Source: Haliotis cracherodii
Taxonomy: Eukaryota
Direction: 5' to 3'
Length of the DNA: 64,000 nucleotides
Assembly (NCBI RefSeq): GCF_022045235.1
Contig: NW_027266308.1
Span: 57,722,001-57,786,000 of the forward strand
How positions within the stretch are numbered: position 1 is the stretch's first letter; every line of letters begins with the position of its first letter. A program made the position numbers and the translations under genes. The notes under the pieces are model-generated. The model saw only the letters and a program-made list of their open reading frames with translations, was not told where the DNA came from and ran no database searches. Below are positions 33,887 through 48,848 of this stretch, one piece after another.

Positions 33887-36800
33887 TATTATAGGCATAA
33901 AATAATAGATAAAAGAATAGTAATTAACAAGTCATTAAGACACTCATAGTAATTATATAAATAAACAAGCTGAGGGGCTAACAGAGTAAGAAATAGGTAT
34001 AACACATGGGAAGATATAGGAAGGGCAGGCGATATAGGAATTGAGGAGCACAGGAAACATACTGGGCCACTAGTAACCAGGGGTGACAGTAGTGGGTCGA
34101 GGGTCGGAGTACCAGAGCAAAACAATAAAAGTATCATAGCAAGGGAATGTGCAGGTTGCCAGAGACAAAATAGATTGGGAGAGGAAACGTAGAGGAAATT
34201 GCCCTCGGGTTCATAAATGGTTTTGGGGGGAATAGTCCAGATTCCGGGGGTTGAGGTGGTTACATTACCACAAGTCCTAAAAAGGACCTTGAGGTGAGAC
34301 AAGAGTGGGTTAGAATCATCTAGTGTAGTGGGGAAAGGTGGTTAACAATGATACATGGAAAAATGAGTAGAACTGTGACGTAGGTACCGATTTAAAAAGG
34401 GACAAAAGCCCCAGAGCGGGGAGAGAGGCGAGAGAGCGGCTGGGGAGACGACAACAGGACTGGTGCTCCTAGAGCGGCAGCCCAGAGCACTTTGGTCAAA
34501 CGAACAAGGTACCAATATCCGAACACAGGAACATTTTCTGTGTAACCCAACATATTCATATATGGATGTCTGCCGGGGAGCCCCTGCTGCGTGTGGCCCC
34601 TGGCCCCCCAAATGAAGGGGCCATTCAAGGGCTGGATCAAACATTGGAGGTACCACATGAAAGTAAGTGTAAATGAACTGTTACATATCACAGAGTACAG
34701 AATGGGCCACGCCAGACAAATCTTCCTCTGCAAAAGGCCTGCCAGACACCCCCAAAGAGGGTCCCAAAATATGGGCTGGGTTAAACATTGGAGGTACCAC
34801 ATGAAATCAACATAAAATGAACTATTTCACTCTACTAAGAATAAAAACCCCATTGCCAGACAAATCGTCTGCTGCATAAGGCCCGCCAGACACCCCCAAA
34901 TGTTGACCCTTAATGCACTCAGTGGACACTCTGGTAAAATTTGACCAGAGTATACATTCAAAGTACCAGATGAAAGTAAGTTTAGATCAACAGGTACATG
35001 TTACTGAGTACAAGACGGCCCATACCTGACAAATTGTCCTCTGCATAAGGTCCGCCAGACCCACCAGAGAGGGTCCCAAAATTTGGGCTGGGTTAAACAT
35101 TGGAGGTACCACACTGGGGGGTCGCGCCTTCAGATTATAACAATTGCAATACAAACCAGGGGGGTCCAAGAAACAGGTTCTCATGACCTGCAAGTATGAT
35201 CATGTTAATTCTAGTTCAAGTGGGAAATCACGCCATTAAGATAATTACAATGCCAAGACAAACCAGGGTGTGTCAAAGGAAGGTTTCTCACGACCTTCAT
35301 GTATGATCATGTTTATTCAGTTCAAAGTGTTTTATGATTTCATAAATGCTTCAAGTTATATTGTGATTATAACGTCAGTAGCACTATTATTAAGATTTCA
35401 TATTTGCAATCAGAGGTTGGCAGAAAAGAAAAGGCTAGGTGTGGTTTGGAAACGGCTTTTCTTTTAACAAAAGAATTCACATTTGTTTGATAACACAGCT
35501 CTATGGTAACAATGATAGGGAAATTTATACAAAATTCAGTCAATCGTGACAGATCAACAATTGCTTGTTTAGAATTTAGTGTTGTGGAAAACACCCTGAA
35601 TGGATCAGGTTAATGCAACCTTTCTTGGCATTTTACCGGGAGGTAAGAAAAGTTTTCCCGGGAAGCTTGATGTCGATTTCTCGAGAGAAGTGACGTGCTC
35701 GTCACACACCTCAGAAAAAAAAGAAGTTAAATTTATTGTGTATGGCTTTCCCTTCTTTATTGAGGGTATTCAAAAACAGATATATATATATATGTACACT
35801 AGGTCATCCTGGGATAGAAGTCTAAACACATTTAACCGTGGCACAGCTCACGCGCCAATATCATGACTCTCTGTATAGTGTAAGACGTTTATTCAAACAC
35901 ATAGATGGCAAATCTGAGACGTAAGGCCTTGTGAACATTTAGATATATAGTGGAGGTTTCATAACAGATATTTGAGTATTGAAATCAAAACCATGTCACA
36001 TTATGAACATACATTTACATTTAACAACAAGAACAAAATCATAAAACATGATGGGTAATTACATTTCACATTTGGTGGTGCGATAGTTTTGACGAGGTGA
36101 ATATCAGTAACGGCCCTTCTCCAACCGTGACACTCCGAGAAAAGTTTTGAAGATCAGGACGAAAATACATCAAGAATAGAACATTCATCTTTTCGTGTCA
36201 CCAAACCCTGTTCATCTCTTTCCGTGACCTGACAAACTTGATATTTTCACACAGGTCTGTGCCACGATTTTGTTAGGTTTCTCGATACGATAAACTTTTC
36301 GGGACCGACCATAAATATTGAAATATTTGGCCGGAATTCAGCTTTTTAGATGATAAAACTTGCTAAATAAACGGAGATCATAGGTTTTTAAACACAATTA
36401 TCACCAAAAGATTTCCAAATGGTATTAGGGACTGTCATTTACCATTCTTATAGCAGGCTTTGAGGACTACCTAAGCATGTTTGGGTTTGTAGGAATCCAT
36501 AGCCAAGCTATCAGGCTATAGCAGGCTTTGAGGACTTCATAGCTGATCAGATATATATTCACAAGAATCAGATTCATGCCTTTTTTTATTACATTTCAAC
36601 GATAGGCCTAATCTATGATATCAATACTAGTATTCAGAGACCTGATTTTATAAATACGTGATTTTAATCTCAATAAAATCCTTCCATCTTTAAGAACAAA
36701 ACATAAATTTGACCATCTGTTGACTCTCAGAGCTGATGTCCAATGTTTCATTATGCACACTGGGATTACAGAGGGTCAACTGTGTGGGGTGGGGTGAGGG

Positions 36801-38202
36801 TCTGTCTAGCGGGCCTTATGCAGAAGAGGATTTGTTTGGCAATGGGTATTTTGTAATAAGTAGAGTGTAATAGTTCATTTTATGTTGGTTCCATGTGATA
36901 CCTCCAATGTTTAAGCCTTATGCAGAGGAAGATTTATCTGGTGTGGCCCATTCTGTACGCTGTGATATGAACCTGTTCATTCAAACGTACCTTAATGTGG
37001 TACAATCGATATATATTCCAGACCAATTTTACCCGTGTATACCTGAAGGGTCAACTTTTTGTGGGTGTCTGGCGGGCCTTATGCAGAAGATGATTTGTCT
37101 GGCAATTGGTATTGTGCAATAAGTAGAGTGCATTTTATGTTGGTTTCATGTGGTACCTCCAATGTTTAACCCAGCCCAAATTTTGGGACCCTCTCTGGGG
37201 GGTCTGGCGGACCTTATGCAGAGGACAATTTGTCAGGTATGGGCCGTCTTGTACTCAGTAACATGTACCTGTTGATCTAAACTTACTTTCATCTGGTACT
37301 TTGAATGTATACTCTGGTCAAATTTTACCAGAGTGTCCACTGAGTGCATTAAGGGTCAACATTTGGGGTTGTCTGGCGGGCCTTATGCAGCAGACGATTT
37401 GTCTGGCAATGGGGTTTTTATTCTTAGTAGAGTGAAATAGTTCATTTTATGTTGATTTCATGTGGTACCTCCAATGTTTAACCCAGCCCAAATTTTGGGA
37501 CCCTCTTTGGGGGTGTCTGGCAGGCCTTTTGCAGAGGAAGATTTGTCTGGCGTGGCCCATTCTGTACTCTGTGATATGTAACTGTTCATTTACACTTACT
37601 TTCATGTGGTACCTCCAATGTTTGATCCAGCCCTTGAATGGCCCCTTCATTTGGGGGGCCAGGGGCCACACGCAGCAGGGGCTCCCCGGCAGACATCCAT
37701 ATATGAATATGTTGGGTTGCACAGTAAATGTTCCTGTGTTCGGATATTGGTACCTTGTTCGTTTGACCAAAGTGCTCTGGGCTGCCGGTCTATCCGCTCT
37801 CGGCCAAAAAGCCTCGAGATCGGGAGAGCGGCTGGGGAGACGACATATGGACTGGTACTCCGTTCTCGGCTTGTTGTCACGATCTTTCGAACCAGCATTT
37901 CGACCGAGACAGAAGCTTTGCGGCCGAAGTCTCGTATTTAAGTGACAAGTAGAGTTGGTTGACCGGCAACACAAAATGGGAATAAAAGCTGTTAAACAAA
38001 GATCACTCTTTGTGCTTGTTGGAGGAACTATGGTAATAGGTCCAAGGCCCTCGGGTACTGACATTGTACCTCTCGCTCATCCCTGACTGTCAGCACCAAG
38101 AACGAGGGGATTACCGTAGTTAGGTCGTAGATGTACACGAATTGCCACCCTGGTAATTAACAACAATTACCGTCCCTTATCATCTTAAAAATACCTTGGA
38201 TA
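33887..38202 (+). repeat. 5' LTR, split into 33887..34469 and 37793..38202 by a DNA-transposon insertion
   Basis: The two halves concatenate to match 47848..48848, with roughly 6 substitutions and one 11-bp indel by eye. Confidence 0.92.
34470..37792. mobile_element. Non-autonomous long-TIR DNA transposon (Academ-like)
   Basis: 644-bp TIRs (34470..35113 and 37149..37792) built of ~155-bp subrepeats; TAG...CTA termini; 3-bp TSD TCC confirmed by the uninterrupted 3' LTR; no transposase ORF. Superfamily inferred from termini and TSD only. Confidence 0.8.
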
Positions 38203-38204
38203 CG

Positions 38205-38224
38205 TGGTGGACTGATGCGGGGTA
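38205..38224 (+). promoter_or_regulatory. Primer-binding site, tRNA-Ala-like
   Basis: TGGTGGACTGATGCGGGGTA starts 2 nt after the LTR; resembles the complement of the tRNA-Ala 3' end (TGGTGGAGATGCGGGG) with a 2-nt insertion. Confidence 0.7.
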
Positions 38225-38268: not shown

Positions 38269-38485
38269 GTGCAGTGGTTGCACAAGCGAGGTAACGTTGC
38301 GCAGCGGTTGCGCAAGTAAAGTGGAACTGTGCGGCGGTCGCACAAGTGAAGTGACGTGGTGCAGCGGTTGCACGAGAACTTCCACTGTGGGGAACTCAAC
38401 AGTCGTTGGGAGGAACAGTGCAGACGTTTGCACATCCGGAAAGGTGCAGACGTTTGCACATCCGGAACGGTGCAGATGGTTGCAC
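38269..38485 (+). repeat. Seven short hairpin repeats in the retroelement leader (4 x 30 bp, 3 x 26 bp)
   Basis: GTGCA-N5/6-TGCAC palindromes at 38269, 38299, 38329, 38359, 38418, 38444 and 38470. Confidence 0.8.
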
Positions 38486-40411
38486 ATCCACGGACCACTC
38501 CGGGCTTACAATGGAGGGGCTTTCGGAGAGACGAGCGGATGGTTACACCTGGACCCAGTGGTGGAGTGACGTACCAGGAAGTGATGGACAGAACTAACAA
38601 TTATGACATTTTAACATTTTGTGTGGTGCCAAGTTTCATTGGATCGGGCCTGGTTAGGTAAGCAATATTTTGATGCATTGTGTTACATATTGTAAAAGAA
38701 CGAGATCCTTGAACATAATCATGCCACTAACACAAGACTCAAACAATAACGGTACAACTGTCGATCAACAGTGTCGGCGTGGGTCGGCTTTATTTTCTAT
38801 GCCACTCACAAGTTGTAGGGTCGTATGGCAAGCCGTTTTAGGGTCGTTCCATCTGACCTAGTGAGCCGAGCACTAGCGCTCCGGTAGCATACCAGTCTCA
38901 TGGTGCCAGTACGCTCGGCTTGTCGAGTTAATTGAGAAATAATTGCTCCTAACAACCATGAAGAAAACATTTCCCAATGAAATTCCCCGCACTCAATCAT
39001 TGCGCTAAAAAGCGCCAATGACCTTATGGACATAAAACAACCAATGTTGAGCCATTTACTTACTTCTTACAAGTGGTATAGTGGCTATAATTGGTCGAAA
39101 CAAGGATGATTTTATCAGGGATCTTGTTCTTGGAAATGCATCTCAGAATGTAAAAATATTTGTGATTACTAGACGATATTCTACACTTGCTAAAGTTATT
39201 TAGAACACAGCTTATGCTGCCGGGTCCCCTCAGTTTGAGTCAAAAGTAATCATGCAATACACTTACCGAGTGAACAGGTGGACTAGCCCACTAATTCGCG
39301 ACAATCTTCACTCCAACCAGTAAATGTTGTTAATATGAGCACGGACTTGTATAACTTGTTATATAGGTCCGTGATATGAGCCAGTACCTTTGTGCCCAAA
39401 CACCACAAGACACACACACCTACCTAGAGCCCTAGAGACACATACACAGTCAACATTTTACTGTCCTCAGAATAACAGTCATAATCCAGGGAAAACCACA
39501 ATGGCAGTGGTGGCCGTTTCACCCAACAGGGAAATTTTACAAATAGAGCAGAAAGTGTCCACCATCCCCCGGTCGACAATACACGTGTGGAGGAGGTGGT
39601 ATACAACACTCAAATGCAGGGTTTCGCAAGTTACTCACAGCACACTTTGTGACACAAGCCTAAAGGTTCAGGTTCGATGAGGCAGACTAGTAATTTAGTA
39701 GCATTATGGTATTTACATGTCAGAAAAACCAAGATAAAAATATTCTTATATAGTTCGTTTTAATTGAACTTCTCCCCGTTGCATAAATATCACCAGAAGA
39801 CCAGAGCATCAATAGTAGGTAGCACTGGGCGGAAACATGATGTCCAAAGGACCTGCAGGGGTATGAACACCGTTGTAGGTCTATTAAGATAATTCTTATT
39901 ATGTCAAATATTGAATTCAGTTTATTAGTTCTACTTCATGAAAAAAACAAAAACAACAAAAAAAGACCCCCCAAAAGACCTGAAAACAAACAAACAAAAC
40001 CTACTTGATTCGTTAATTAAAAACATTTGTTTATTTTTTTCATCAATGTCTACTGTGGTACCTCTGATATTTTCGTACAAAATTGACTTGATAAACGTTT
40101 GTAATAAAAGAGTTATATATTGTAATATGTGATTCCGCGTTGAAAAGCATTAAAAAGGCCAATGAACGAAAATCCAAATGGTTCAGCTACAAGTGGACCA
40201 ATATCTTTTTAATCTGCAGAACATAGATAAGATAATATTTATTGCAGAAACATTGCATTATGGGACTGATGCAATTTTGTAAAGATGAAACATTATGATT
40301 CATATATACATATATACAGACATACAGAATTTACATCCCGGTAGTCACAAAAAAAAATCAATATTACATATTTGATGATATTATTATACATAAAATGGCA
40401 ACGGTTGGATA

Positions 40412-40540
40412 GTTCGTCACGCTGAAGACCGTGTTCGATTCCCGACATGGGTATAATGTGTGAAGCCGATTTCTGGTGTCCCCGCCGTGATATTGCTGGA
40501 ATATTGATAAAAGCGGCGTAAAACTAAACTCACTCACTCA
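40412..40540 (+). mobile_element. SINE family A (5'-truncated) inside the LTR element
   Basis: GTTCGATTCCCGACATGGG...GCTGGAATATT...(ACTC)n. Confidence 0.8.
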
Positions 40541-41053
40541 CGCACACAACGGTTGATTAGAATGAAGGGGTATTTATTGTTTAAAATAATAGACATGGAA
40601 ACAAATGCAATTGATATTGATGGCTTCATTATTTGACAGGATGTATTGGAATAATCTGTTTTCATGGCTGTGAACATGTACATTTACATTTTGTGTGAAT
40701 AATTGCCCAAAGAGTATATTTCTTTCGTGAGCATTTTGGGTACAGTGAAATAGGTAGATCTTTCAATCATCAATGGTTAAACATGTAAAGCATAGCCTCT
40801 GATGTAGTGGGGTTGGTGGCTTTGTATGTCTTACAAGTTCAATATTTAATTTATGGTTCCTAATCTTATTTTAGAAATATAAATGTTTCGAAAGTTGTAA
40901 AAATAACATCAATATCAATACGTCAGACCTTTTACCTCTCCACTGCTTTTCAATAGATCACAAAAACCTGGCCCTTCCCCAATAGTAGACCGCCCAAAGG
41001 AGAAACCATGGCATGTGCTCAGGAATTCTTCTCTACCCCCTCCCCCCCCCCCA

Positions 41054-41108
<55 letters not shown>

Positions 41109-41526
41109 GATCTCTCTCTGGATCTTTCTCTCGATAAGCAACCCAACATAGATGTATCCGGTTATCAGGTTATAAATGACCACAGTGGTGCTGTTACCCC
41201 CTATTCATTAACAGTGCGCACCTTGCAAGCTTGGCACATTTGGCACCTCCGGTGGCCTGGCACTGGCCTCAGTGTCAGCTATCGACATGGATGCTAGGTC
41301 AAATAACCCCAAACACCCTGTCCCCACTGGTGATATGTCACCAACCTATGTGTCAATTATGGTAGCATTTGAAGGATCTCATGGTGGGTAGGATTTCAGG
41401 AGAGAATAGTACACCAACAAAAACTACCGAAATTCAAGCATAGCGATAGCGTCTGACCACGCCTCAAAACCAAAGGGGTGTTCACATAAAGATGTACATA
41501 TATTGATCCATTTGAATGAAGTGAAT

Positions 41527-42223
41527 ATGCCGACGAGATGGTTCTTGTCGAGGAGATAATGCCGACGAGATGGTTCTTGTCGAGGAGATAATGCTGACGA
41601 GATGGTTTCTTGTCGAGGATATAATGCCGACGAGATGGTTTCTTGTCGAGGATATAATGCCGACGAGATGGTTACTTGTCGAGGATATAATGCCGACGAG
41701 ATGGTTTCTTGTCGAGGATATAATGCCGACGAGATGGTTTCTTGTCGAGGATGTAATGCCGGCGAGATGGTTTCTTGTCGAGGATATAATACCGACGAGA
41801 TGGTTTCTTGTCGAGGATATAATGCCGACGAGATGGTTTCTTGTCGAGGATATAATGCCCACGGGATGGGTTCTTGTCGAGGATATAATGCCGACGGGAT
41901 GGGTTCTTGTCGAGGATATAATGCCGACGAGATGGTTTCTTGTCGAGGATATAATGCCGACGAGATGGTTTCTTGTCGAGGATATAATGCCGACGAGATG
42001 GTTTCTTGTCGAGGATATAATGCCGACGAGATGGTTTCTTGTCGAGGATATAATGCCGACGAGATGGTTTCTTGTCAAGGATATAATGACGACGAGATGG
42101 TTTCTTGTCAAGGATATAATGCCGACGGGATGGGTTCTTGTCAAGGATATAATGCCGACGAGATGGTTTCTTGTCAAGGATATACTGCCGACGGGATGGG
42201 TTCTTGTCAAGGAAGTGATGCCA
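41527..42223 (+). repeat. 33-bp tandem array (~21 units), each unit a stem-loop
   Basis: Unit AATGCCGACGAGATGGTTTCTTGTCGAGGATAT; stem CGACGAGA/TCTTGTCG. Confidence 0.95.
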
Positions 42224-42610
42224 ATAGGGTGATAATTAGTCATGTGAAGGGACAAACATGATTCAGTTATGTAGCGTATCATGGGATAGATAACAGGGGT
42301 GCCAGGATCAAGAACATGTTGCCTACCACCAGTGCGCAATGGGGGTGGGTGACATGTGAGAAACTGACATCAAGTAATAGGGGGTGCCTGCTACCATGGG
42401 ATTTAGCAAAGCATTTCAGCCACTGCACCGACACAATCACGCACAGGATACACGGACAGGATACACGGACAATGCACTGATAGGAACTTCACCTCACACA
42501 TAATAACTTGACATCTAGTACTGGAAAAAAAAATGTATATAATGAAGTTATTGCATCAATAGGACCCCAGATACTATCACTAAGGACATCTTTATCTGTT
42601 CCCAGGCGAG

Positions 42611-45142
42611 ATGTTGCTCTGGCTGTTGACGACCACCGCCCTAAGCCTGATTTGGAGTATACAAGGGACAATTAGTCTGGAGAATGATCTCCAGAGATTA
42701 CATTTTGGGGTTCTGTTTAAAAATTTGGGGAGACTTAAAACATACGACCAAACTTGGGTACACACATTTGCACTGACACTGCCGAAAACACTTCCTACAG
42801 ATCTCACATTCAAATTCCCGCGATGTGTCGCTGCATTTAAGGGTACCCCTGCCAGATGCTTACAGACAAAGGACGTAACGGAACCACTTTTGAATTACAC
42901 TCGGGACATACACCACGCCGCAACCCAACACATACAGGATACCCTTGACACCATCAAACACTTCATACCAGAAAGTACAGAACCTCAAAGCCAATCGCGC
43001 CAACAACGCAGCTTATTACCATTTTTGGGTACCATAGCTAAGGGCCTCGCGGGGGTCGCCACAGAAAGGGATTTAAAGATCATTGCGGATCATGTTAGAC
43101 TGCTAGCAAATGAAGTTCACCTACGCGACATAGCCTTTAACCTCACGGGGCACACCATGGCATCATATATGACTAAAACTAACTCCCGCCTGGATAACCT
43201 AGTAAGAATTGTAACGCTTAATCACAACCAAATAGTCCTAGCATCACAACGTAGCCTCCGGGAGAACGACTGGTACAAACAATTATTTGCCACCTTACTC
43301 ACATTAACCACACAACAGTTGCACCTTACCAATGAACTGAACGCACACGCACGGGACCTCCTGACCAGTACATCAAAACTCCTACAAGGCCAACTACCAC
43401 AAGAATTGATTCCATTATCTACGCTCAGAGTGGTAACAAATAGAATTCGACTCCAGTTAGCCTTACATTATTCCGACTTTGACCTCGTGCATAAGGACCC
43501 GCGTCAATATTACACCCAGGCACATGTGAAAGTCATCCGGAAAGGGGATATTCTTTTCCTGTCCCTATTAGTACCCATCACCCCATTCAAGGAAGCCACT
43601 ACCCTTTATCAGACCACAGCTATCCCAGTTCCATTACATGAAGACTCGAACGATACTACCATAGTCAAAAACCTTGCAAGATTCATCGCGGTGTCACAGA
43701 GGGATAAACGGTTTGTAGAGTTTACGAGGGAGGAGTACGACTCATGTATAGACACAACGACCACACAATGTAGTAGTCTACCAGCGGAAAGGAGCTTCGT
43801 AAATCCCACATGTACGCTTGCACTCATCCAGAATGATATCGATTTGGTACATGAATTGTGCAACTTCCACTTGGTACCCGATGGAGCGGAGTCACAACTA
43901 TACGAATTAGGTACAGGACAATTACTTCTCATTAAAATACCCAAATTAATCTACACATGCGCGAACGTAACAAAAATCCAGCAGGGATGTAATTATTGCC
44001 TGGCGCCTATCTACTGTTACTGCTCTATCCAAGCAGTAGGGAAGATGCTTCCCCCACGCCTTACTGGTTGCAGACAACCAGAAGACACATCCTTTGTAAA
44101 TTACACGTTAAACGTAGCCCTGCTCCGGCATTACTTTTCGACACAAGACATCCTGAAGAGATTACCGTCCTTAGTCGCAAAAGAACCAGTTGCTTACAAA
44201 ACGGCACCATTTCGATTGTCAAACGCTTCATTTACTAATCTGATGAAAACAGACACAAAAATCAGTATTAACTTAAAACATGCCGTCGCCAAAGCCAAGG
44301 CCAACGAAATTATATACACTAACCCGGCCGATCCTTTGTACCTGGATGCACTGACGAGTACTGAAGGGAACACCGATTGGTTCGGGGTAGTAGTCTATTC
44401 CACTTACGTAATGTGGGCTTGTATTGCTGTGCTATTCGTCTCGGTAGTTCTTACGAAACGTCGCATAGCGGCAATACAGGCACAACTAACTTTAAGAGCG
44501 GCGTTGGCCACGGCGGCGGGAATATCCATACCTCAGAATCCTTTGGTATGGACGCAACCTGCTACCGCCACCACAACAACCGACACGCCTGGTTTGTCGG
44601 CAGCGGCCATATTCAAACCCCTTTGGAATCTGGAAATGATGGTATTACTGTTGGTTATAATATTGTTCATAACACTGGCAATTTATTTCTACCGGGTCCA
44701 AACCAACCCCACCACGACGCTCTACCTAAGTTTCTCGACTCCACATGACAACCTTAGACTCAACCTCCTCAAGGTTGACGCCCCGCCGATGGTACTGTCC
44801 CTTTCTCAGTCACAATATATCCCGGAAAACATTCAGATTACACATCACTGGCTCACTTCCAAGATATACATCAAATGGCCCATGAGTAATGTGTCCCTGT
44901 GTAACACGCTTACAGATACCCAAATTGCCCTCCCTGTAGCACTAACTGTCCCTCGACATGTGGCTGGACGGCTGTATAAGGTCCTCCAGGGCAGATATTT
45001 ATTGTTTATGTACCTAGTACAATTTAGAACGACTTATCCTGTTTCGGCCGGACCCTCAAATTCCCATGCCAGTCAAACCCCAACAGCAAGTCAATACAAG
45101 GACAGATCGGGGGGCGGACTATATCCAGCGCTAAATGGTTAA
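42611..45142 (+). CDS. env: Envelope glycoprotein, class I fusion type (baculovirus F/errantivirus Env-like), 843 aa, intact
   Basis: N-terminal signal peptide; furin site RQQR (aa 130-133) followed by fusion peptide SLLPFLGTIAKGLAGVAT; heptad region; Cys-rich domain; several N-X-S/T sites; TM at aa ~590-614 and a second TM at ~676-694; lies between the LTRs. Confidence 0.88.
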   Translation: MLLWLLTTTALSLIWSIQGTISLENDLQRLHFGVLFKNLGRLKTYDQTWVHTFALTLPKTLPTDLTFKFPRCVAAFKGTPARCLQTKDVTEPLLNYTRDIHHAATQHIQDTLDTIKHFIPESTEPQSQSRQQRSLLPFLGTIAKGLAGVATERDLKIIADHVRLLANEVHLRDIAFNLTGHTMASYMTKTNSRLDNLVRIVTLNHNQIVLASQRSLRENDWYKQLFATLLTLTTQQLHLTNELNAHARDLLTSTSKLLQGQLPQELIPLSTLRVVTNRIRLQLALHYSDFDLVHKDPRQYYTQAHVKVIRKGDILFLSLLVPITPFKEATTLYQTTAIPVPLHEDSNDTTIVKNLARFIAVSQRDKRFVEFTREEYDSCIDTTTTQCSSLPAERSFVNPTCTLALIQNDIDLVHELCNFHLVPDGAESQLYELGTGQLLLIKIPKLIYTCANVTKIQQGCNYCLAPIYCYCSIQAVGKMLPPRLTGCRQPEDTSFVNYTLNVALLRHYFSTQDILKRLPSLVAKEPVAYKTAPFRLSNASFTNLMKTDTKISINLKHAVAKAKANEIIYTNPADPLYLDALTSTEGNTDWFGVVVYSTYVMWACIAVLFVSVVLTKRRIAAIQAQLTLRAALATAAGISIPQNPLVWTQPATATTTTDTPGLSAAAIFKPLWNLEMMVLLLVIILFITLAIYFYRVQTNPTTTLYLSFSTPHDNLRLNLLKVDAPPMVLSLSQSQYIPENIQITHHWLTSKIYIKWPMSNVSLCNTLTDTQIALPVALTVPRHVAGRLYKVLQGRYLLFMYLVQFRTTYPVSAGPSNSHASQTPTASQYKDRSGGGLYPALNG

Positions 45143-45948
45143 CATTTATACAATGAACACCTCCAAAGCAACCTTACAGGATAAGATTTGCTAGACAAAT
45201 AATACAAGTACTCAACAACAAATAAAATACAAAATAAAATTAAAACACGCAAGACTCCGAACAAAACAAAACTGTCCTTGTTATCAAAACAAACAAAACA
45301 ACAATAACAAAACAAACCCTACATTGGGCTCCTGCATATTCTACATCCACTTTAACACCCTAAAAGTTGTCCTTCGCACACACGTGGGCTATCAAGGTGA
45401 ATCAACACCGGACACAGTGGGTTACTTGGGTACATATACGTAAATACAAAAACAAAACAAAAAACAAAAACAAAAACAAAACAATGTTGGTTGGTACACT
45501 CATCTACGTCTGTACGTATCAGTTTGACAGGGGTGTTATCCCTGGAACTTCACATTCATACGATCCGTACGATAATTGGCAATATCTATATGTGCAGATA
45601 AAGCGTTGGTTGGTACTACCATCTACGTCGGTACGTATCAAGTTCGACGGGAGTCTCATCTACGCCGGTACGTATCAAGTTCGACAGGGGTATTACCCCT
45701 GGAACTTCGAGTCCTTACCCCTGGAACTTCGAGTCCTTGCAATCCGCACAATCATTCGAATCACCATACCCATATATAAAGGATTGACCGTTACTCGTAT
45801 CGCAGTCGTATGTGTTCAGTTCAACAGAGGTGTTACGCCTGGAACTACATTCGGCGACTACCGATCGTTACTTTAAGTGCAATTATATACATGATATTGT
45901 TAGTGTGCAATTATTAACATACATATTGGTTTGAAACCCTGTAACGTG

Positions 45949-47322
45949 ATGGATACGCAGACGGTTGAACATGTTGTGACTTCTTTTGATAACGAATTCG
46001 GCAAAACGACCGCCCCTGTTGTCATTCCGGAAAAATTATGGCGAAAATTGTGTCGGCTCTCCCTATTCTTTAAATGTCTTTCTGGCTACATATTTAATAT
46101 GGGAGAACATTGGGGCAAAACCCATTTAGCAGACGGAAGGTTCAAAACTTACAAACGTCGTCAGTTCACATTGAACCCTCCAATACTTTTTACGCCCAGC
46201 CCCCCTGATTTGGCCGACCGTATAGGAAGGGCCCTCTATCTAGCAGCAAACCCAGGACCACTGACCGATGTCCCCGAATCGTTAGGTATAGGAGCGGCCG
46301 TACTTTTAATGTACGGTTTATAATATGACTTACGAATGTTGATAGTATTAGGTGTTCAGACGGCAATCGGAGAATTGGACATGGCTATCCTTTTCCAATT
46401 ACAACAATTACAGACGGACATGGGTGCCGACCTACAGAGTTATACAGAAATATTCTGGCAGTTAGCGGATATTCCTAGATCAGTCATCGGACGTACTCTG
46501 TCCAAACCAATAACGCCAGAAGTACTAGGAAGCTTATCAATGGGAAGGGACCATCTCACTTGTAGGCGATCGCAATTGGCGTTACGGCATGTCTTGACGC
46601 GATGCGCCCTTTGTTATAAAGACACATTTCCGATGAATGATCAGGGAACAAATTTTCCAACGGTAACTTTTTGCAAATGGTGTCGCCGGATACAACACGT
46701 GGAATGTGCAGCCGCCCTGCTAAAACAGTCTGGCTTATCCTACCGCATAGTGACACTTAACGCAGGGACACCAAATGCCCGCCAGTATATAGAACTCGAC
46801 TTCCCTACAAGCCACTATTCGGAAGCATTCGACGTGCAGCCAGGGTTCCTGGAAGGTCGTGTTTCTCCACCTTTAGACCTCAGATTCAATTTAGATCAGT
46901 GTTCAGTCTGTAGGGTACCTTTTGGCTGTGATTTCATGGAGGTGCCGAGTGACATTCCACCTATATTGTACAAAAATCCGGCCTTCACACCGCCCAAACA
47001 TCCCCTTGATAGATTCGACGTAAGGACCTTCATGAATTATTTCAGATCGTCAACAGAACGAATACCACCGGGGAAACCGGTACGAATATATTTAAGCCTG
47101 TCGTCCCCTCCAATAGAATTTCCAAAAACATTGATGGACGAGACCAGACGCCTTATAGGTCCGCTCAATCGTAGGCTCGTAGAAACGAGGGCGCTACAAA
47201 TTAGACTGTTCTACCCTCCTCAAAGTTCAGACTTTTGGGACGAATATTGTTGGAACAAGGGGGTGTCAGTTACGCAGTTAGCAGACGGGTTGAATCTACA
47301 CAATGACCCCAACGAAACATAA
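45949..47322 (+). pseudogene. Retroelement accessory gene (~457 codons) with one in-frame TAA at 46321; C4HC3 PHD/RING-variant finger, possible N-terminal BTB-like domain
   Basis: Track ORFs 45931..46323 and 46336..47322 share a frame and are separated only by TAA TAT GAC TTA CGA; motif CALC-x19-CKWC-x4-HVEC-...-CSVCRVPF. Confidence 0.65.
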
Positions 47323-47786
47323 CATAGTTGTGCGGCAATAAGAATCGTCTCACAGAGAGGTCACACTTAATCAATGCGTCACCACCATCAATAGTTTATG
47401 TCTCTTAACTCTATAGTGTATAAATGTCGTTCTTAAGTAACATATTCCTTGTGTCCATCTGTGTACCCTGTGTGATTTATTGGTATTAAGGTTGTACCCA
47501 TGCATATAGTCAAGGATTATTACTCCTATTGCACCTAAATCAGTGCAAACTAGTACAAATATATGCAAATAGGTGTCTCATTGTTATTAGAACTATGCCA
47601 ATCTTTGTATATTAGACGTATATATCTATCGAAATTGTATTCACGTGTGTGTGTTGTTTGTTTTTTTTGCAATTATGTGTGTATTTTCTGTAATTGTTCA
47701 AGGTCAACCAGCACTATGGTCACACCCATTTATTTAAAACAGTACGTAACAAAAAAACAAAAAACATCCCAAACTGAACCAACCCA

Positions 47787-47847
47787 GATCCCCACGGCAC
47801 TCTACCTTAAGAGTGTGAGGACACACTCTTCGTCAGACCGGGGATCG
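47787..47847 (+). promoter_or_regulatory. Pre-LTR hairpin and short purine tract (plus-strand priming region)
   Basis: AAGAGTGTG-AGGA-CACACTCTT 9-bp hairpin (47809-47830), then GGGGAT-CG abutting the LTR; GATCCCC (~47788) can pair with GGGGATC. Confidence 0.55.
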
Positions 47848-48848
47848 TATTATAGGCATAAAATAATAGATAAAAGAATAGTAATTAACAAGTCATTAAG
47901 ACACTCATAGTAATTATATAAATAAACAAGATGAGGGGCTAACAGAGTAAGAAATAGGTATAACACATGGGAAGATATAGGAAGGGCAGGCGATATAGGA
48001 ATTGAGGAGCACAGGAAACATACTGGGCCACTAGTAACCAGGGGTGACAGTAGTGGGTCGAGGGTCGGAGTACCAGAGCAAAACAATAAAAGTATCATAG
48101 CAAGGGAATGTGCAGGTTGCCAGAGACAAAATAGATTGGGAGAGGAAACGTAGAGGAAATTGCCCTCGGGTTCATAAATGGTTTTGGGGGGAATAGTCCA
48201 GATTCCGGGGGTTGAGGTGGTTACATTACCACAAGTCCTAAAAAGGACCTTGAGGTGAGACAATAGTGGGTTAGAATCATCTAGTGTAGGGGGGAAAGGT
48301 GGTTAACAATGATACATGGAAAAATGAGTAGAACTGTGACGTAGGTACCGATTTAAAAAGGGACAAAAGCCCCAGAGCGGGGAGAGAGGCTAGAGAGCGG
48401 CTAGAGAGCGGCTGGGGAGACGACAACAGGACTGGTGCTCCGCTCTCGGCCAAAAAGCTTCGAGATCGGGAGAGCGGCTGGGGAGACGACATATGGACTG
48501 GTACTCCGTTCTCGGCTTGTTGTCACGATCTTTCGAACCAGCATTTCGACCGAGACTGAAGCTTTGCGGCCGAAGTCTCGTATTTAAGTGACAAGTAGAG
48601 TTGGTTGACCGGCAACACAAAATGGGAATAAAAGCTGTTAAACAAAGATCACTCTTTGTGCTTGTTGGAGGAACTATGGTAATAGGTCCAAGGCCCTCGG
48701 GTACTGACATTGTACCTCTCGCTCATCCCTGACTGTCAGCACCAAGAACGAGGGGATTACCGTAGTTAGGTCGTAGATGTACACGAATTGCCACCCTGGT
48801 AATTAACAACAATTACCGTCCCTTATCATCTTAAAAATACCTTGGATA
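47848..48848 (+). repeat. 3' LTR (1001 bp)
   Basis: TATTATAGG...CCTTGGATA; TATA-like ATTTAAAAAG at ~48351 and AATAAA at ~48627. Confidence 0.93.

Follow-up and report, generated by a model that had tools for sequence, protein, structure and literature searches.

How the cytoplasm-assembled capsid of a Ty3/gypsy element gains a membrane after env capture is an open question; to our knowledge, the Gag of these elements is without a retroviral MA domain. An env ORF of 843 aa (42611..45142, plus strand, as are all features given below) lies in the window, the 64-kb stretch of DNA analysed here. From the ORF and the Pfam matches of its homologues, it encodes an F-type class I fusogen with a C-terminal extension. 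An earlier note on this DNA had proposed that env joins the fusogen to a second, matrix-like membrane protein able to drive budding itself, which would matter in a gag-less element. The pairing of fusogen and matrix-like protein gains support from TM2, the signal-like stretch and the conserved YPxL, from a charge bias that places the C-terminus on the cytosolic side, and from the matrix proteins that head the structural matches; a connection with a gag-less element is unsupported. The matrix-like Env extension is a real, conserved and apparently undescribed feature of a known element type.

Organization of the Env protein

A furin-type RQQR followed by a hydrophobic, fusion-peptide-like segment is located at 42998..43069 (R133 is invariant in 10/10 rows), and the ectodomain also contains conserved cysteines. 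Baculo_F (PF12259) was found in 3/10 aligned homologues (best E 1.7e-11); the window Env itself gave no Pfam match, Baculo_F included. By its predicted signal peptide, RxxR, fusion peptide and TM, the window Env is an F-type class I Env.

Hydrophobic peaks are located at aa 592-610 (KD 2.05) and aa 676-694 (KD 2.81). TM1, the fusogen anchor (aa ~592-614, 44384..44452), is followed by a predicted internal signal peptide (aa 616-637, 44456..44521), which starts with KRR (aa 616-618), continues with an apolar stretch and ends in small residues, with the putative cut near AAG|IS (aa 635-639). A Thr/Pro-rich spacer, recognised by its S/T/P content and predicted to be lumenal (aa 638-675, 44522..44635), contains PATATTTTDTP (aa 650-660) and leads to TM2 (aa 676-694, 44636..44692). 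Behind TM2 lies a beta-rich domain with one helix (44693..45055), predicted to be cytosolic and matrix-protein-like. The low-confidence tail ends in LYPALNG (aa 837-843, 45119-45139; stop codon 45140-45142), of which LYPAL (45119..45133) is YPxL late-domain-like. TM1, KRR, AAG|IS, the Thr-rich segment, TM2 and LYPALNG all lie where the earlier note had placed them; its domain of ~150 aa divides into a folded part of ~110 residues (aa ~702-810) and a tail of ~33 aa modelled with low confidence.

The element carrying env

The element is bounded by a 5' LTR of ~1 kb (33887..38202) and its direct repeat, the 3' LTR (47848..48848). The 5' LTR is interrupted by a 3.3-kb insertion at 34470-37792, and its two pieces align to the 3' LTR with 988 matches, 6 mismatches and 11 gap columns (99% identical). 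The insertion has inverted ends of 644 nt (99% complementary) and internal repeats, and no coding frame was recognised in it. The target-site duplication CAAA is present on either side of the window element, that of a sister copy being CTAG. A primer-binding-site-like sequence (38205..38222), read from the sequence and starting with TGG 2 nt past the LTR, is identical in the sister copy. Next come a gag remnant and non-coding DNA, then a 33-nt minisatellite and env, with a fourth ORF behind env. The gag remnant (39051..39612) was detected with the ORFs of sister copies as tblastn queries (E 2e-24, identity 31-71%) and carries frameshifts and stops; with the same queries no pol match was found anywhere within the window. 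As gag is broken and pol absent, gag-pol-env is not intact here, and the window copy is a defective member of the F-type env-carrying Ty3/gypsy elements (errantivirus in the operational sense).

Sister copies contain gag and pol, with PR-RT-RNaseH-IN in this order (Pfam on their ORFs). A copy at G000:C20 shares 96.5% DNA identity with window 41655-48346, and an Env 98% identical to the window Env is present in a gag-pol-env copy. The gag-less rationale is ruled out by the gag remnant in the window and by gag-pol in the sister copies; judged from the copies compared, the Env extension is characteristic of the gag-bearing elements as a family, and its origin is not in a gag-less setting.

Four loci with the internal non-coding DNA of the window were examined, and two of them (C14, C67) have neither pol nor env, their layout being gag remnant, minisatellite, LTR sequence. 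Because of these two loci, and because the window LTR is only 84-87% and the gag remnant only 31-71% alike to the sister copy, the window copy is most likely a recombinant of a non-autonomous element and the env-bearing family. About ten related genomic loci (L063-L075) resemble window 38400-42230 in carrying its gag remnant and minisatellite as well as its non-coding DNA; this group, including the two loci examined, is classed by its sequence as a non-autonomous LTR family. The minisatellite (41520-42230) lies immediately 5' of env, is common to full-length and non-autonomous copies, and is a plausible recombination site.

Conservation of the extension

The extension has 31 matches in its own genome (1.18 Gb), at 21-100% identity. 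Alignment A3 comprises 22 rows with 10-36% identity to the window Env; near-identical genomic copies were excluded from it, as were P0006 (near L030), L041 (near L053), P0001 and L049 (frame ends within the extension) and P0007 (no TM2). Among 20 metagenome loci collected via an ectodomain pattern, 13 frames pass TM1 and 13/13 of these have the extension; the other seven comprise two with fragments and five that ended or broke earlier. As estimated against a diverged genomic copy, the beta-rich domain evolves under purifying selection (dN/dS 0.08), the ratios being 0.17 for the TM region and 0.27 for the tail. In the comparison with the closest copy, one synonymous and five non-synonymous changes fall in the domain, too few for a judgement. 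Across the very distant homologues aligned, conservation covers the extension as a whole and, within it, TM2, the pattern of the signal-like stretch and YPx[LIV]. TM2, whose lack of conservation would have counted against the proposal, is present in 22/22 rows. An extension that arose by chance or read-through is ruled out by this conservation and the dN/dS of 0.08.

P0007 is a 151-aa protein that has the matrix-like domain but neither TM2 nor YPxL, either a free-standing form or a fragment. At window 44300-44500, identity to a copy at G000:C18 (L023, L024) changes from 92-100% in the ectodomain to ~80% from TM1 on, which suggests that recombination swapped the extension as a module.

Membrane topology and internal signal

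According to the positive-inside rule, a basic flank marks the cytosolic side of a membrane segment. Net charge after TM1 is +2 to +3 in 20/20 rows that include TM1; in 22/22 rows it is <=0 ahead of TM2 and +1 to +5 behind it. Both segments would thus be N-out, C-in, so that the chain must cross the membrane once more between the two. In the segment downstream of TM1, basic residues are joined by an apolar stretch free of acidic ones, and small-x-small forms its end. Its (-3,-1) pattern, scored by a hand-made rule and not by SignalP, is located at offset +20 in 12/20 rows and at +16 to +18 in most others, with one row without a site. The spacer region consists of 36% S/T/P over 21 rows and has an N-glycan sequon in 5/21. 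The predicted order is signal peptide, lumenal F ectodomain, TM1, cytosolic KRR, internal signal, lumenal Thr/Pro stub, TM2 and cytosolic domain. A lumenal C-terminus, which would have spoken against the earlier note, is opposed by the charge bias, which predicts the C-terminus to be in the cytosol.

The alternative of a TM1/TM2 hairpin, with the spacer cytosolic, the domain lumenal and LYPAL due to chance, is highly improbable: the window Env has only two strong hydrophobic peaks past the ectodomain and one sequon (N760) inside the domain, as a hairpin would have it, but the basic residues after TM2 and neutral or acidic ones before it in 22/22 rows, the sequons in 5/21 spacers and a motif conservation far above shuffles argue against it. 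Env might also stay one chain with three membrane passes (TM1, an uncleaved signal anchor and TM2), the matrix domain being tethered to the fusogen trimer and the matrix-like function kept. This is rather unlikely, since a small residue after a polar one at a fixed distance, as tabulated above for the (-3,-1) pattern, is signal-peptidase-like, and since the G000:C18 copy, with its differing identities in ectodomain and extension, points to a module exchangeable as a unit; an uncut chain would, on the other hand, account for the weak apolar core in the window subfamily (KD 1.0-1.7 vs 2-3 elsewhere; best 9-mer KD 1.2 in the window copy) and for several candidate cut sites instead of one.

Fold of the C-terminal domain

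Matrix proteins of four virus families were on top among the best 50 whole-domain structural matches listed, and the fold-match scores for the predicted domain were middling. Like the Mononegavirales matrix proteins (Borna disease virus M, filovirus VP40 N-domain, RSV/NDV/Nipah M), the domain is predicted to form a beta-sandwich, whose predicted topology would match theirs over ~100 residues, and likewise it is predicted to lie under the envelope with late-domain motifs close by. On its predicted fold the domain would work like M; because it lies inside the env ORF behind TM2, and hence is not a soluble product of its own gene, it is not filed as an M gene.

No M family was found among the Pfam matches at E<=1 (22 members) or among PDB sequence matches at E<=10. 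Matches to bCoV_NS8 (E 0.0045, 1/22) and Vps25 (E 0.12) were taken for noise. Coronavirus M/ORF3a, the first fold guess, was absent among the best 50 structural matches listed; the ESM Atlas gave no match at 0.9 or above, and Foldseek with the domain alone gave nothing below E 0.14 in the viral library. A homotetramer prediction in which the alignment was unused gave no answer on oligomer or lattice, the fold being uncertain. Longer proteins containing the domain were sought with a profile; the five recovered all belong to this Env family.

Late-domain motifs

YPx[LIV] is located <=12 residues from the end in 12/20 complete tails; in 20,000 within-tail shuffles the mean was 0.48 and the highest count 4. 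Among the motif-bearing tails, median identity is 18%. Conservation of the terminal YPxL in homologous Envs thus holds far above shuffles for part of the family, 8/20 complete tails being without it; two later-found homologues lack YPx (12/22 overall). P[TS]AP occurs in 3/20 tails (shuffle mean 0.09), in all three together with a YPx motif. A quick, midpoint-rooted tree of 21 rows, 11 of which carry the motif, was built with the tail columns and without completion of the careful search; on it the motif needs two changes, a pattern that fits two losses. LYPAL agrees with the YPxnL late-domain consensus and lies in a conserved, flexible segment whose cytosolic side is predicted from charge bias. 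Late-domain classes and the LYPAL of MLV are covered in PMC8402826. Four Gag regions were scanned and contain no YPx[LIV] and no P[TS]AP; because two of the four have PPxY (PPTY in one, PPAY in the upstream frame of the C20 gag), Gag may share ESCRT recruitment with the Env tail.

YPAL also fits the YxxPhi consensus. The tail could accordingly be a sorting module, in which the beta domain is merely M-like and YPAL is an endocytosis/lysosome signal that sets the place and amount of Env display. Middling fold scores, the missing sequence link to M and a motif dispensable in two clades are in line with sorting. We regard it as unlikely, as Pro occupies +1 in 12/12 terminal tyrosine motifs, 0/8 of the other tails have YxxPhi instead, P[TS]AP co-occurs in three, and matrix proteins of four virus families top the whole-domain structural matches.

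Proposed function and relation to known systems

The reading of the extension as a budding module is considered probable: env would encode an F-type fusogen plus a module likely released by signal peptidase as a membrane-anchored protein. One mRNA would supply F and M at 1:1, furin would prime F, and the signal peptidase cut would free a type I membrane protein of ~206 aa. Its matrix-like cytosolic domain would accumulate under the budding membrane alongside F, line it and capture Gag capsids, and the YPxL tail would call ALIX/ESCRT (in some members also TSG101) for scission, so that the module would act together with Gag. A matrix-like protein and ESCRT motifs within env would be a concrete, testable answer to the question of membrane acquisition. 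If true, retroelements and negative-strand RNA viruses have a budding module in common in addition to a fusogen, the matrix fold extends beyond Mononegavirales, and Env surveys limited to the ectodomain overlook a second protein.

Envelope polyproteins of alphaviruses, flaviviruses and bunyaviruses have a TM anchor after which an internal signal initiates the next membrane protein, and the Env of foamy virus supplies the membrane link for pre-made capsids. These differ from the window Env in their class II fusogens or N-terminal leader peptide, and among signal-peptidase-processed polyproteins and foamy virus Env we know of none in which a class I fusogen is followed by a matrix-fold domain.

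The F-type env-carrying Ty3/gypsy elements described as 'ancient errantiviruses' (Chary and Hayashi, PMC13524379) are, as far as the available text goes, alike in LTR-gag-pol-env layout and PR-RT-RH-IN order (sister copies) and in the signal peptide, furin site, fusion peptide, conserved cysteines and Baculo_F similarity of Env. In that text such elements are classified and only the ectodomains between signal peptide and TM were folded and analysed; its main text makes no mention of matrix, ESCRT, late domain or polyprotein, and neither the Env extension nor the fourth ORF is described there. F-like Envs with one TM are described in PMC7947760 and PMC5408684. A full-text literature search, with few subscription papers in scope, found no paper on a matrix-like domain in a retrotransposon Env.

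The TM1-to-end model had its best viral-library (BFVD) matches in chuvirus (Jingchuvirales) glycoproteins of 700-1,235 aa (four at E<=0.001, ~200-265 columns). Chuvirus G differs in being a class III fusogen (stated in one of the sources PMC6932829, PMC6525542, bioRxiv 10.1101/2024.09.25.615016, 10.64898/2026.08.30.748148 and 10.1101/2024.12.15.628590), and the structural match is gone with the domain alone; it may rest on helices and is taken as a lead only. A figure legend in PMC6932829 names, for chuviruses, no ORFs other than R, G, N and hypothetical ones, and the gene order in carbo-, culter- and cartiloviruses has G ahead of M (PMC13293379). The wider reading, to which we give somewhat less than an even chance, is that an ancient, widespread animal branch of Ty3/gypsy became enveloped via a complete budding cassette of a fusogen and a true homologue of the Mononegavirales matrix protein, made as one signal-peptidase-cut polyprotein, and that the same TM-anchored matrix lies unrecognised at the ends of chuvirus glycoproteins as the matrix gene that those viruses seem to lack.

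Additional features of the element

The fourth ORF (45949..47322) is interrupted by a stop at 46321-46323 and has weak C1-type zinc-finger similarity (E 0.055 in the window; E 0.00017 for the ORF of another family). An ORF of ~470 aa in this place, 3' of env, is present in two distant families of elements (L021:4352-5767; L030:3862-5289). The end of the sister pol is chromodomain-like by eye only, with no Pfam match at E<=0.01. The C20 copy (L022) contains a long tandem repeat with a unit of ~14 aa, in frame between protease and RT.
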